A stretch of 64,000 nucleotides of DNA, taken from Corallococcus sp. AS-1-6 (lineage in GTDB: Bacteria; Myxococcota; Myxococcia; Myxococcales; Myxococcaceae). Shown in pieces: positions 19,197 to 23,419 of this stretch. Both the position numbers and the translations under genes were made by a program. Within the stretch, counting starts at the first letter, position 1. Each line of letters starts with the position of its first letter. Under the pieces are notes generated by a model. The model was not told where the DNA came from. It was given only the letters and a program-made list of their open reading frames with translations, and made no database searches. Location of the stretch: NCBI RefSeq assembly GCF_020037015.1, contig NZ_JAIQDE010000007.1, positions 115,886-179,885 of the forward strand. Reading direction: 5' to 3'.

Positions 19197-19946
19197 ATGG
19201 CACAGATCAAGCTTGGAGAACTGCTGATCAAGGCGAACGTCCTGCAGGAGAGCCAGCTCAAGGCGGCGCTCGCCGAGCAGGCCAAGTGGGGCGGGAAGCT
19301 GGGCGAGATCCTCGTCCGGATGAACCTCGTCTCCGAGGACATCCTCGTGCGCGCCCTGTCGAAACAGTTGGGCATGCCGGCGGTGAACCTGGACTCCGTG
19401 CAGATGGTTCCGCCGCACGTGAAGGCCAAGATTCCGGCGCAGACGGCGCGCGACTTCTCCGTGGTGCCGCTGCAACTGCGCGACGACGGCAAGACGCTGG
19501 TCGTCGCCATGTCGGATCCGCTCAACGTGCGCGTCCTGGACGAGCTGCGCGCCCTGTCCAAGTGCCGCATCGTGGCCAACGTGGCCGGGCGCACCTCCGT
19601 GGCGCGGGCGTTCGCGCGCCTCTACGAGGAGACGGCGGAGCTGGAGGACGCGGACACCAACTTCAAGGTGGTGGACGCCCAAGGGCGCACCGTCGTGAAG
19701 AACCTCAAGGACCTGGACCCGGCCGCCGCCGTCGCCATGTCCCCCAAGCCCGCCGCCGCTCCGCCGCCCCGCCAGGCCCCCCCGCCGGAGGCGCCGCGCG
19801 CGGCCTCGGGCAGCCCCGCGGAGCTGCTCAAGAGCGTGGAGGAGGTCCAGCGCAAGGAGGTCGCGGCGCTGAAGGCCATGGTGGAGCTGCTCATCGAGAA
19901 GGGCGTTTTCTCCCGCGAGGAATACCTCGCCAAGGTCAAGCGGTAG
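19197..19946 (+). CDS. T2SSE_N (GspE/MshE N-terminal-like) domain protein
   Basis: Two repeats of LGELL...G.I...L..AL..Q...(T2SSE_N/MshEN-like fold): IKLGELLIKANVLQESQLKAALAEQ... and ...VVPLQLRDDGKTLVVAMSDPLNVRVLDELR. Confidence 0.7.
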   Translation: MAQIKLGELLIKANVLQESQLKAALAEQAKWGGKLGEILVRMNLVSEDILVRALSKQLGMPAVNLDSVQMVPPHVKAKIPAQTARDFSVVPLQLRDDGKTLVVAMSDPLNVRVLDELRALSKCRIVANVAGRTSVARAFARLYEETAELEDADTNFKVVDAQGRTVVKNLKDLDPAAAVAMSPKPAAAPPPRQAPPPEAPRAASGSPAELLKSVEEVQRKEVAALKAMVELLIEKGVFSREEYLAKVKR

Positions 19947-19955
19947 CCCCCGGCC

Positions 19956-20963
19956 ATGCGCAAGAAGATTGGTGAACTCCTCGTCCAGGCCGGAGTGGTG
20001 ACGGACGAGCAGGTGAAGCAGGCCCTCGCGTCCGGACGGCGCGGACAGGGCCGCAAGCTGGGTGAGGTGCTGGTGTCCATGGGCCTGTGCACGGGCCGGG
20101 ACATCGCGCGGGCGCTGGCGGCGCAGCACGAGCTGCCGTTCGTGGAGATCCCCGAGTACATCCCGCATGCGGTGTCCTCGCTGGTGTCCATGGACTTCCA
20201 GACCGAGCACCGGGTGCTCCTCTTCGCGGCGGAGCAGGACGGCCGCAGCGAGAAGATCCACGTCGCGGTGGAGGACCCGGGCAACCTGATGCTGGTGGAC
20301 GAGCTGCGCTTCCAGCTTCGCAAGCCGCTGAAGGTGTTCGTCGCCGCGCCGGATGACCTGGAGCAGGCGTTGTCGCGCGGCCGGGGCGAGCCCCTGGACA
20401 TCGTGGAGGCTGAACCGATGGACATGGACGAGGACGATTCGCCGGACATCCTGACGTCTCCGCCGCCCCCGCCCGCCGCCGCGCGCGCGCCCACGCCGCC
20501 GCGTCCGCCCGCGCCGGCGCTGGACTGGGACCTGCCGCCGCCGCCGCCCAACGAGTCGGGCGTGGACGGCGCGGAGGTGCTGGAGGACATCCTGGGCTCC
20601 ACGCCCCGTCCCAAGGTCCCCAAGGCCCCGCGTCCGCCGCCCCCGCCCGCCGCGGCCCGTCCGCCGCCGCCTCCGCCCCCCGCGGAGCCGGAGGACCCGA
20701 GCAAGCCGCGCGTCCCGGTGGTGCTCTTCGGCGGCGCCGCGCAGGGCGTGAAGCCGTCCGTGGCGCTCACGCCCAAGCCGGACTTCTCCGAGGAGGACCT
20801 GGCGGTGCTGGACGACATCGACCGCATCTCGCGCGGCGAAGAGGCCAGCCTGGACACGGAGAAGGTGAAGCCCGCGCGCATGGTCGCGAGCCTCATCCGC
20901 CTGCTCATCCGCAAGGGGCTCATCCAGGAGGCGGAGTTCCTGGAGGAGCTGGCCCAGAAGTGA
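19956..20963 (+). CDS. T2SSE_N domain protein with long Pro-rich linker (paralogue of preceding gene)
   Basis: [23 protein letters not shown]...[10 protein letters not shown]...; [20 protein letters not shown]; PPPPP-rich 130-aa linker; conserved C-terminal helix shared with upstream paralogue. Confidence 0.7.
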
Positions 20964-21991
20964 CCGGCGCCGCGCCGTCCCCCGGGGCCTCCGCCGTTGC
21001 CCCGCTCCTGGACGTGCGGGGGCTCGTCACCCAGTTGTCGCTCCCCCGCGGCACGGTGCGCGCGGTGGACGGGGTGTCCTTCTCCGTTCCCCCCGGCGGC
21101 ACGCTGGGGGTGGTGGGGGAGAGCGGCTGCGGCAAGAGCCTCACGGCGCTGTCGGTGATGCGGCTGGTCCCCCAGCCGCCCGGCCGCGTGGTGGGCGGCG
21201 AGGTGCGCTTCCGGGGCGAGGACCTGCTGGCCCTCCCGGAGAAGCAGATGCGGCGCGTGCGCGGCCGGCACGTGGCCATGGTCTTCCAGGAGCCCATGAC
21301 GTCGCTCAACCCGGTGTTCACCGTGGGCGAGCAGATTGGCGAGGGCGTCCGGCTGCACCTGGGCGCCACGAAGGCCCAGGCGCGTGAGCGCGCGGTGGAG
21401 ATGCTCCGGCAGGTGGGCATCCCGGCGCCCGGCGAGCGCGTGGACGCGTACCCGCACCAGCTCTCCGGCGGCATGCGCCAGCGCGTGATGATCGCCATGG
21501 CGCTCGCGTGCGATCCGGCGCTGCTCATCGCGGACGAGCCCACCACGGCGCTGGACGTCACCATCCAGGCCCAGATTCTCGAACTGCTCAAGCGCCTGCA
21601 GGCCGAGCGCAACATGGCGGTGATGCTCATCACCCACGACCTGGGCGTGGTGGCGGGGAGCTGCGACGCGGTGGTGGTGATGTACGCGGGCCGCATCGTG
21701 GAGCAGGCCCCGGTGCGCGAGCTGTTCGCGCGGCCCGCGCACCCGTACACGGCGGGCCTGTTGCGCTCCATCCCGTCGCTGCACGACGCGGGCGCGGCGG
21801 TGGAGGGCGGACGTCAGCGCCTGAAGGCCATTCCCGGCATGGTGCCGTCGCTCACCGCGCTGCCGTCCGGGTGCGCGTTCCGCGACCGCTGCGACCGCGC
21901 CACGGAGCTGTGCGCCCGCGTCACGCCCGCGCTGGAGCCGAAGCGCGGAGGCCAGTCCGCCGCCTGCCATCATCCGGTGCCCGCGCCATGA
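20960..21991 (+). CDS. ABC transporter ATP-binding protein, OppD/DppD type
   Basis: [18 protein letters not shown]-terminal oligopeptide-transporter domain; GTG start overlapping upstream stop. Confidence 0.85.
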
Positions 21992-23043
21992 GCGAGCCGC
22001 TGGTCCAGGTGCGCGACCTGAAGGTGCACTTCCCGGTGAAGGGCGGCCTGCTGGGCCGCACGCGCGGCACGGTGCGCGCGGTGGACGGCGTGTCCTTCGA
22101 CGTCGCCCGGGGCGAGACGCTGGGCCTGGTGGGGGAGAGCGGCTGCGGCAAGAGCACCCTGGGGCGCGCGGTGCTGCGCCTCATCGACCCGACCTCCGGC
22201 TCCATCCGCGTGGCCGGGCGTGAGCTGACCGGCCTGTCGCAGCGCGAGCTGCGTCCGCTGCGCCGCCAGATGCAGCTCGTCTTCCAGGACCCGTACGCGT
22301 CGCTCAACCCGCGCATGACGGTGGGGGACATCCTCGCGGAGCCCTTCGCCATCCACGGCCTGGCGAAGGGCAAGGCGCGCGAGGACGAGGTGCTGGCGCT
22401 GCTCGACGCCATGGGGCTGCCCCGCGAGGCGCGCCAGCGCTACCCGCACGAGTTCTCCGGCGGCCAGCGTCAACGCATCGGCATTGCACGTGCCATCGCG
22501 TTGCGTCCGGACCTGGTGGTGGCGGACGAGCCCATCAGCGCGCTGGACGTCTCCATCCAGGCGCAGATCGTCAACCTGCTGGTGGACCTGCAGCGCGAGC
22601 GCGGGCTCACCTACGTCTTCATCGCGCACGACCTGAAGATCGTCGAGTACGTGTCCACGCGCGTGGCGGTGATGTACCTGGGCCGCATCGTGGAGGTGGC
22701 GCCGTCGCGGGCGCTGTATGCCGGGCCTCGCCACCCGTACACGCAGGCCCTGCTGTCCGCGGTGCCGGTGCCGGATCCGGAGCGCCCCGGCACGCGCCTG
22801 CTGCTGCCGGGAGAGCCGCCTTCGCCCCTGTCGCCGCCGTCCGGTTGCGCGTTCCACCCGCGCTGCCCGCATGCGATGGAGCGCTGCCGCCGCGAGTCAC
22901 CGCCGCTGTATCCCCTGGGCGGTGGCCACGCCGCGGCGTGCTTCCTGGCCGAAGGGGATTCGCGCGACGTACAGGACGGGCCCGCTGTTTCCGCGTCCGG
23001 AGGAGGTGCCGGTGTTCTGGCTCAGCCATCATCACGCGGATGA
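21988..23043 (+). CDS. ABC transporter ATP-binding protein, OppF/DppF type
   Basis: [31 protein letters not shown]; ATGA overlap with preceding gene. Confidence 0.8.
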
Positions 23044-23419
23044 GTACAACCGCACGTACGTGCTCGCGGGCGTGCGCGTGTGCGCGCGGTGCCTGGGCAC
23101 GTACCCGGTGCTCGCGGGCGTGTTCCTCGCGTTGTTCGCGCTGAAGGCGCCGCTGCGGTGGGAGTGGGACGTGCCCGGGGTGCTGGCCCTCACGCTGCCC
23201 GCGCTCGTGGACTGGGCGGTGGGACGCTTCCGGCCCGCTTCGGGTTCCAACGCGGTGCGCACGCTGACGGGCGTCCTGCTGGGAGTGGGGCTCGGCCGCT
23301 CGCTGTACGTGCATGTGCAGCGCCCGCTGCCGGCGGTGCTGCTGGCGCAGGCACTTCTGGTGACAGGGGTGGCGGTCCCTGTCATTCTCGCCACTTACCG
23401 GCGGCCACGGCCGGAATAG
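23012..23419 (+). CDS. DUF2085-like small membrane protein
   Basis: AGGAGG then GTG; CxxC...TM helices ([22 protein letters not shown]); upstream part of ORF 22718 is spurious. Confidence 0.4.

Follow-up and report, generated by a model that had tools for sequence, protein, structure and literature searches.

A 64,000-nucleotide stretch of the genome of Corallococcus sp. AS-1-6 (contig NZ_JAIQDE010000007.1, positions 115,886-179,885, about 72% G+C), here called the window, carries an operon that begins with two genes for free-standing MshEN-domain proteins, MshEN1 and MshEN2, predicted receptors of cyclic di-GMP (c-di-GMP). They are followed by genes for an OppD- and an OppF-type ATP-binding cassette (ABC) ATPase and for a DUF2085 membrane protein (Table 1). 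A sequence-only reading had called these five genes at 19197-23419; all of them are present there, and their domain calls are correct in Pfam and NCBIfam. The same reading closed the operon at 23419. It runs on into the genes of an extracytoplasmic function (ECF) sigma factor and a zf-HC2 anti-sigma factor.

The genes are tightly joined. MshEN2 and oppD meet in a GTGA junction (20960-63), oppD and oppF in an ATGA junction (21988-91), and translational coupling of this kind spans MshEN2, OppD, OppF and DUF2085. The DUF2085 gene starts with GTG at 23012, 32 nt inside oppF, and is preceded by a Shine-Dalgarno-like run, GGAGGAGG. These junctions are as first described; the gap between the two MshEN genes, given as 10 nt, consists of nine bases (TAG at 19944-46, ATG at 19956). 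The stop codon of the sigma gene and the start of the anti-sigma gene overlap at 24128-24131. In Archangium loci (e.g. L048) oppF and the DUF2085 gene barely overlap, and the 32-nt overlap arises because the oppF stop lies about eight codons later in Corallococcus and Myxococcus (23020-23043).

Counting genes from the HD-GYP regulator MXAN_4675, the Myxococcus xanthus orthologues of MshEN1 and MshEN2 are MXAN_4667 and MXAN_4666, both of which Kuzmich et al. (2022) include in a list of 17 MshEN genes. Table S2 of that study gives MXAN_4667-4666-4665-4664-4663-4662-4661 as "operon 24", with intergenic distances of 7, -3, -36, -31, 44 and -3, which bears out the proposed co-transcription of the MshEN genes with oppDF. 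The window operon is the Corallococcus copy of MXAN_4667-4661, and because the latter is listed with a mapped start site the operon itself is already on record. The Cappable-seq start site of MXAN_4667 lies 5 nt 5' of the start codon; its signal is strong in growth and has nearly disappeared at 6 h of starvation. The sigma gene MXAN_4662 has a constitutive start site of its own, 66 nt 5' of the gene (Kuzmich et al. 2022). In the window a TACTAT box is found at the position that matches the MXAN_4667 start site, and by homology a near-leaderless transcript would start at about 19192. Consensus scans of 19197-23419 gave no convincing sigma-70 promoter or terminator. The sole sigma-70-like promoter match in 18100-26100 (TTGACA-18-TAACAT, 10/12) is at 25971-26000, about 90 nt 5' of cpaB.

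MshEN1 is 100% identical in Corallococcus coralloides KYC2213, and the same gene order is found in every related genome-collection locus of sufficient length. The arrangement is not due to chance because this order recurs in related loci and in the M. xanthus operon listing. MXAN_4663-4668 are not mentioned in the main texts of the literature searched, where no phenotype has been published for them, and the genes are not in the lists of two omics supplements. The name frgA was rejected as an identity of these genes; it is given as MXAN_1130 or MXAN_3225, depending on the source.

Table 1. Positions of the MshEN operon genes and of neighbouring features in the window
Feature	Position	Strand	Remarks
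MshEN1	19197-19946	+	249 aa; Pfam MshEN 55.6 bits; NF053729 c-di-GMP_motif 64.8
MshEN2	19956-20963	+	335 aa; Pfam MshEN 49.2 bits; NF053729 c-di-GMP_motif 58.5
OppD/DppD-type ABC ATPase	20960-21991	+	ABC_tran + oligo_HPY; C-terminal 4-Cys oligo_HPY region
OppF/DppF-type ABC ATPase	21988-23043	+	ABC_tran + oligo_HPY; C-terminal 4-Cys oligo_HPY region
DUF2085 small polytopic membrane protein	23012-23419	+	Pfam 38.6 bits; HHH...CxxC motif
ECF sigma factor	23451-24131	+	Sigma70_r2 + r4; MXAN_4662 counterpart; 3' part of operon
zf-HC2 membrane anti-sigma factor	24128-25537	+	MXAN_4661 counterpart; operon 3' end
TACTAT -10-like box	19179-19184	+	read from sequence; position matches M. xanthus MXAN_4667 start site
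DUF4292 / LolB-like lipoprotein	18307-19137	+	Pfam DUF4292 55.7 bits; usual upstream neighbour of MshEN pair
ExbB/TolQ-like	17530-18264	-	Pfam + NCBIfam; divergent from DUF4292 gene
ExbD	17059-17514	-	Pfam + NCBIfam; divergent from DUF4292 gene
HD-GYP response regulator (MXAN_4675 orthologue)	11414-12535	-	about 7 kb upstream, opposite strand
Flp-type pilin open reading frame	25556-25858	+	G/AMVEYS motif
CpaB/KilB	26091-26909	+	
TadB/KilG	26988-27833	+	
TadC/KilH	27847-28737	+	
FHA protein	28811-31702	+	

MshEN1 and MshEN2 as predicted c-di-GMP receptors

Both proteins exceed the gathering score of Pfam MshEN (PF05157; 23.1) and the cut-off of NF053729 (38), which supports their earlier assignment to T2SSE_N/MshEN and the description of a free-standing, duplicated domain with the c-di-GMP motif kept. 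Each has one MshEN domain and no other Pfam domain. No match to the hexameric T2SSE ATPase domain (PF00437) was found in either, and they are not members of the GspE/PilB/MshE ATPases, with which they have only the N-domain in common. The two are paralogues with 32% identity over the domain. MshEN1 consists of the N-terminal tandem c-di-GMP motif with the MshEN_C subdomain, a Pro-rich linker and an invariant helix-KG-helix tail. MshEN2 has the MshEN domain, a long Pro-rich linker, a conserved PVVxFGGAA motif and a C-terminal helix-turn-helix tail. The linker between domain and tail is disordered and variable in both.

The reference motif is RLGxx(L/V/I)(L/V/I)xxG(L/V/I/F)(L/V/I)xxxxLxxxLxxQ, of which the relaxed form of Wang 2016 permits K at position 1. 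K occupies this position in all four half-motifs of the pair. MshEN1 has otherwise intact half-motifs save for N instead of G at position 10, and MshEN2 has I for L at position 2 and G for Q24 in motif I. Among 27 divergent homologues L-G at positions 2-3, the hydrophobic residues at 17 and 21, and Q24 are invariant or near-invariant. In Wang 2016 the leucines and the glycines G11 and G40 carry c-di-GMP binding, which is abolished by changes of G11 and G40, and changes of R9 and Q32 have less than a five-fold effect. NF053729 is passed by MshEN orthologues of every architecture class described below (51-75 bits), including MshEN1 and MshEN2 of the class II and class III representatives and of L108, and MshEN2 of L094.

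The AlphaFold (AF2) model of MshEN2 has a predicted local distance difference test (pLDDT) score of about 95 over residues 11-140. Its best Foldseek match is the N-domain of Vibrio cholerae MshE with c-di-GMP (5HTL; template modelling score 0.78, root mean square deviation 2.8 A), and the matches also include PilF structures, PilB-PilZ (7LKO) and GspE-GspL (4PHT). The MshEN1 model, built from a 24-sequence alignment, has a pLDDT of 51 and is unusable because the alignment is too shallow. The sequences of both proteins match the N-domains of PilB, PilF and MshE in the PDB, and for MshEN1 phmmer gave 5HTL at 1.9e-10 and PilB at 2e-23. Binding of c-di-GMP by MshEN1 and MshEN2 is therefore well predicted.

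V. cholerae MshE, PilB and Thermus thermophilus PilF have the same MshEN fold and tandem 24-residue motif as the window pair. Unlike these proteins, MshEN1 and MshEN2 lack the T2SSE ATPase, have a Pro-rich linker with a helix-turn-helix tail and form an adjacent paralogous pair; they also differ from the MshE motif in having K and not R at position 1 and, in MshEN1, N at position 10. Other MshEN proteins include 17-22 in M. xanthus, NfrB (MshEN-glycosyltransferase) and MXAN_2807 (HD-GYP with MshEN), and the domain is already established as a portable c-di-GMP input module.

The C-terminal tail of MshEN1, ...ALKAMVELLIEKGVFSREEYLAKVKR, is invariant in 18-24 orthologues. Both tails (19901-19943 and 20883-20957) resemble a degenerate third copy of the 24-residue motif in which L2, L6, I7, G10 and the hydrophobic residues at 11, 12, 17 and 21 are kept and R1, G3 and Q24 are absent. 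The two tails might pair into a pseudo-MshEN_N bundle.

The MshEN1 family with the same three-part architecture comprises 127 clusters (50% identity) at E<1e-30, and relatives of MshEN2 are limited to Myxococcaceae and Archangiaceae. MshEN2 varies in length from about 300-380 aa in cultured species to 465 aa in L073 and 725-885 aa in distant loci (e.g. L129:8743-10920 and L094:8851-11508), with an apparent 1839-aa open reading frame in L102 (8742-14261). The variation lies almost wholly in the linker.

Architecture of related loci

The survey comprised 80 genomic loci and 80 metagenomic loci, the latter anchored on a distant subfamily, and about 150 related loci were compared. They fall into four architecture classes, assigned by tblastn with Pfam spot checks, and MshEN1 identities are given relative to the window. 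Class I has the order DUF4292 - MshEN1 - MshEN2 - OppD - OppF - DUF2085 - sigma - anti-sigma. It is found in all fetched cultured genomes of Myxococcus, Corallococcus, Pyxidicoccus, Hyalangium, Archangium and Cystobacter and in some metagenome-assembled genomes (MAGs), with MshEN1 identity mostly at least 73% (58-65% in three MAG loci). Class II consists of 23 loci from MAGs of uncultured Myxococcaceae and Archangiaceae (56-70%). Their tightly packed genes have the class I order with OppA (SBP_bac_5), OppB and OppC inserted between DUF4292 and MshEN1.

Class III, from soil metagenomes (43-50%), has DUF4292 - MshEN1 - long MshEN2 - HD_5 (HD-GYP-like) - sigma - anti-sigma. Class IV collects the remaining metagenomic arrangements: L094 (38%) with DUF4292 - MshEN1 - MshEN2 - two ABC ATPases without oligo_HPY - sigma; L102 (60%) with MshEN1 - MshEN2 - OppD - OppF - DUF2085; L091/L092 (41%) with DUF4292 - MshEN1 - MshEN2 - sigma; and L107/L108 (39-40%, 59% G+C) with MshEN1 - MshEN2 - DUF2085 - CpaB - TadB - TadC - FHA - FHA. 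A DUF4292 gene is present upstream of MshEN1 throughout classes I, II and III, as it is in L094; in the window its product scores 46.8 bits against LolB1_Flavo, slightly under the cut-off of 50. The DUF2085 gene comes after oppF both in classes I and II and in L102, and stands directly after MshEN2 in L107 and L108.

These gene orders show the MshEN pair to be the invariant element and OppDF-DUF2085 to be one of several exchangeable middle modules. The sequence-only reading had proposed a c-di-GMP-responsive ATPase module. Since the pair persists in lineages without any ABC ATPase, the core is the pair and not the ATPases, and the C-terminal tails of both paralogues are retained in these classes as well.

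Some loci deviate in other ways. In the class I-like MAG loci L060 and L068, OppD-OppF-DUF2085 come directly after MshEN1 and MshEN2 was not detected. In two class III loci a fusion of a PP2C phosphatase with a cyclic-nucleotide-binding domain is encoded just 5' of the DUF4292 gene (L129:5910-7193 and L147:5598-6989). The gene 5' of MshEN1 in L108 (6810-7871) gives a sub-threshold match to TIGR02266 (50.6 vs 68.7 bits), a PilZ-like paralogous domain family of Myxococcus.

It is quite improbable that the genes are coupled by descent only, as neighbours in a slowly rearranging region whose overlaps reflect the compact packing of unrelated functions. This explanation draws on synteny across the cultured Myxococcaceae and Archangiaceae, which extends over an entire block of some 14 kb and takes in metabolic genes of no related function, for diaminopimelate (DAP) dehydrogenase, MaoC and acyl-CoA dehydrogenase, and it fits the lack of a published phenotype. 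In the distant loci, however, the flanking metabolic genes and ExbBD are gone while DUF4292, the MshEN pair, sigma/anti-sigma and Tad genes remain linked at MshEN1 identities as low as about 40-50%, and exchange affects the middle module only. Because the metabolic genes and ExbBD drop out, simple inertia is an unlikely cause of the retained order. The same comparison narrows an earlier suggestion that the module serves the nearby ExbBD system: ExbBD lies beside DUF4292 in the class I and II loci, of Myxococcaceae/Archangiaceae type, and was not detected in the distant classes.

OppD/OppF and the split importer

Walker A, Q-loop, signature, Walker B and H-loop are all complete in both ABC ATPases, and each ends in a region with a C-terminal GCxFxxRC...C...C motif. 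OppF scores 414 against the subfamily model NF008453 (cut-off 408), and all equivalog models (OppD/DppD/OppF) stay under their cut-offs. The catalytic motifs of OppD are conserved in 49 orthologues and those of OppDF are intact in 45-49, with no premature stops; by these alignments, OppDF are shown to be under clear purifying selection without local permeases.

The proteins share ABC_tran and oligo_HPY domains, catalytic motifs and the four-Cys motif with PepT-family (Opp/Dpp) importers. Unlike the usual importers of this family, they stand in a window without genes for a binding protein or permeases, as had been claimed: when two divergent OppABC sets were compared with the 64 kb by tblastn, no match to OppA, OppB or OppC reached an E-value under 0.4, and Pfam on nearly all large open reading frames of the window gave none. 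The further claim that OppDF are a partnerless ATPase module by nature does not hold. In the 23 sister-lineage loci of class II, all uncultured, oppA-oppB-oppC lie immediately upstream of the MshEN pair, so that relatives carry two sensor genes inserted exactly between oppC and oppD. Adjacent OppABC genes, which would speak against a stand-alone module, are thus found in relatives and not in the window of this genome. In L073 the stop codon of DUF4292 abuts the oppA start, and a single base separates oppA from oppB and oppB from oppC.

Because oppABC are directly upstream of the pair in the sister lineages, OppDF are not orphans by origin. On this comparison they are what survives of a PepT-family peptide importer, its ATPase half, and oppABC appear to have been lost or relocated in the lineage of the cultured species.

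The class II loci carry two divergent Opp types. In one OppDF are 71-75% identical to those of the window, in the other only 40-47%. Two Opp sets with the same split position separate L063, L065, L066, L070 and L076 from L067, L073-L075 and L079-L088. Compared with each other, the sets are 40-47% identical in OppDF and 44-54% in OppABC, while MshEN1 stays near 60%, as if an entire importer had undergone non-orthologous displacement that left the inserted sensor genes undisturbed.

A c-di-GMP-gated peptide importer could by itself account for the operon. MshEN1 and MshEN2 would dock on the OppD/OppF heterodimer, one on each, and tune ATP hydrolysis, OppDF would energise PepT permeases encoded elsewhere, and the Kil (Tad-like) and sigma genes farther downstream would be incidental. 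The GTGA/ATGA coupling from MshEN2 through OppD, OppF and DUF2085 agrees with this, as do the 23 loci, of two divergent Opp types, in which precisely the pair separates oppC from oppD, the match of two sensor paralogues to two ATPase paralogues, and the purifying selection on OppDF. ABC ATPase pairs also follow the MshEN pair in the distant loci L094 and L102, and a single ATPase does so in L098. Candidate permeases exist in M. xanthus, where three PepT membrane proteins are encoded elsewhere (MXAN_6552, MXAN_2019 and MXAN_2020); MXAN_6551-6553 and MXAN_2019-2021 are not mentioned in the main texts of the literature searched.

Against an importer as the only client, the pair and its C-terminal tails persist without an ABC ATPase in class III, L091/L092 and L107/L108, and L060 and L068 retain OppDF without MshEN2. 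No MshEN-ABC fusion occurs among the ten long homologues checked, which are PilB-type ATPases, an NfrB-type glycosyltransferase, a REC protein and multi-MshEN proteins. A relocated oppB was not found in cultured Myxococcus or Corallococcus either: the best 120 relatives of the sister-lineage OppB, reaching down to 56% identity, are all metagenomic or from MAGs, which leaves room for a more distant or a type-1 copy. An importer as sole client is on balance rather unlikely.

The proposed principle of a small sensor controlling an ATPase in trans would be the same as for FimX-PilZ on PilB. A transport ATPase is controlled in this way by EIIA-Glc acting on MalK.

Candidate clients of the MshEN pair

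The window shares with the M. xanthus Kil system, a Tad-like machine for the contact-dependent killing of prey, the core of cluster II (Flp, CpaB, TadB, TadC and FHA genes) right after the anti-sigma gene. The names and extent of the Kil clusters are those of Seef et al. (2021), in which cluster II is MXAN_4648-4661, with the anti-sigma gene MXAN_4661 as published boundary, and the other cluster is MXAN_3102-3108. The MshEN pair, OppDF, DUF2085 and the sigma factor have not been described as Kil components. Tad/Kil genes are found downstream of the pair in 48 of the 65 loci that have at least 4 kb upstream and at least 7.5 kb downstream, and they occur in classes I, II and III and in L107/L108. 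The link to a Tad-like system suggested earlier is therefore the most widely conserved association seen.

The cluster itself varies. The minor-pilin genes KilM4, KilN4 and KilL4, which in M. xanthus stand directly after the anti-sigma gene and before the rest of cluster II, are absent from Corallococcus (26091-33478 compared with L169:16421-20718). The Flp-type reading frame between the anti-sigma gene and cpaB is conserved in Corallococcus and in class II loci, and in the window it has an unusually long Pro/Arg-rich N-terminal leader if the first ATG is used. In Archangium minus (L005) the TadE/Tad genes are inverted, downstream.

Other features of the window lie farther away. An HD-GYP response regulator and a hybrid kinase with degenerate GGDEF, both pointed out in the sequence-only reading, are present. 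The kinase (41412-44006) is SgmT-like with GAF-HisKA-HATPase-REC and a weak partial GGDEF; sgmT is MXAN_4640 in M. xanthus. Downstream of it are two bactofilin genes and a ParB_N-domain gene (46753-49788), presumably the bacNOP-padC cluster. The genes at 57514-59657 and 61841-64000, for an ABC-2 permease, a Wzt-type ATPase with Wzt_C and a family-2 glycosyltransferase, seem to form a locus for polysaccharide export that has no relation to the MshEN operon.

Another possible target is the ECF sigma factor. The MshEN pair would then target either the zf-HC2 anti-sigma factor or sigma itself and let c-di-GMP set sigma activity, the middle genes would be inputs or feedback, and any effect on Kil would be transcriptional only. 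Sigma/anti-sigma genes follow the pair in classes I, II and III, and sigma alone does so in L092, L094 and L098. Both genes belong to the same operon call in M. xanthus, and in class III an HD-GYP-like protein is encoded between the pair and sigma. Domains of the MshEN type bind bitopic membrane proteins at their cytoplasmic domains (GspE-GspL), and RsiG/sigma-WhiG of Streptomyces is a precedent for c-di-GMP-armed anti-sigma control. On the other side, the sigma factor of M. xanthus has its own constitutive internal promoter, L107 and L108 have no sigma/anti-sigma genes in the interval from the pair to the Tad genes, and these context genes do not appear in the main text of the ECF reclassification paper. 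As a complete account of the operon, control of the sigma factor seems possible but not likely.

The reading that we favour, tentatively and short of calling it probable, is that the MshEN pair relays c-di-GMP to the Kil/Tad-like machine or to the sigma/anti-sigma pair ahead of its genes, and locally to OppDF. MshEN1 and MshEN2 would bind c-di-GMP through the N-terminal four-helix motif, probably pair via their C-terminal tails and pass the c-di-GMP state on through protein-protein docking. The conserved client would be the Kil/Tad-like machine or the sigma/anti-sigma pair. Tad ATPases lack the sensor domain that is part of PilB/MshE ATPases in cis, and the MshEN pair in this role would provide it in trans. 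The translationally coupled OppDF would be a second, local client, with peptide uptake tied to the same signal.

MshEN domains elsewhere gate type IV filament ATPases and dock partner proteins, as in PilB-PilZ and GspE-GspL. This relay is placed first for that reason and because Tad/Kil genes, usually with sigma/anti-sigma, are the partner set found across the largest number of architecture classes. Gating of Opp is placed second and is compatible with it.

Several observations weigh against the favoured relay. The changes at position 1, at position 10 of MshEN1 and at Q24 of MshEN2 keep c-di-GMP binding at the level of a prediction. Tad genes were not detected within the flanks of L092, L094, L098 and L102, and the gene for KilF, the Kil ATPase, belongs to the other cluster. 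The kil genes are reported to be induced by starvation (Seef et al. 2021), while the start-site signal of MXAN_4667 collapses by 6 h of starvation, with mRNA slightly down (Kuzmich et al. 2022); these opposite responses are a point against a role in Kil. Neither Seef et al. (2021) nor the 2025 Kil pilus paper mentions these genes or c-di-GMP. The survey also has to be read with care: locus counts hold among the loci fetched, at most 80 per scan and all anchored on MshEN1, many of the loci are phylogenetically non-independent, and the metagenomic ones come without taxonomy.

A more specific form of the relay, which we regard as doubtful, casts the MshEN pair as the c-di-GMP sensor that the Kil machine is missing. 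Acting in trans, the pair would stand in for the N-terminal sensor domain absent from Tad (CpaF-type) ATPases and would gate the killing apparatus, in its assembly or its activity, where prey is contacted. In the ancestral operon a peptide importer, too, would have answered to this signal, as part of a "kill-and-eat" unit.

No account of the conserved context of the MshEN pair was found in the literature searched, and no link between c-di-GMP and the Kil system in the Kil and predation literature searched. The evolutionary context of the operon and the proposed connection between Kil and c-di-GMP are likewise absent from the literature searched. ABC ATPases that look like an orphan pair can be what remains of an importer operon that was split, and if the Opp link is functional it would be an example of a c-di-GMP-controlled ABC importer. 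According to the literature, it is unknown by what means the Kil apparatus becomes active and why its assembly is restricted to prey contacts, and the MshEN pair, at the head of Kil cluster II, is a concrete candidate regulator. If true, this would be the first tie between c-di-GMP and bacterial predation.

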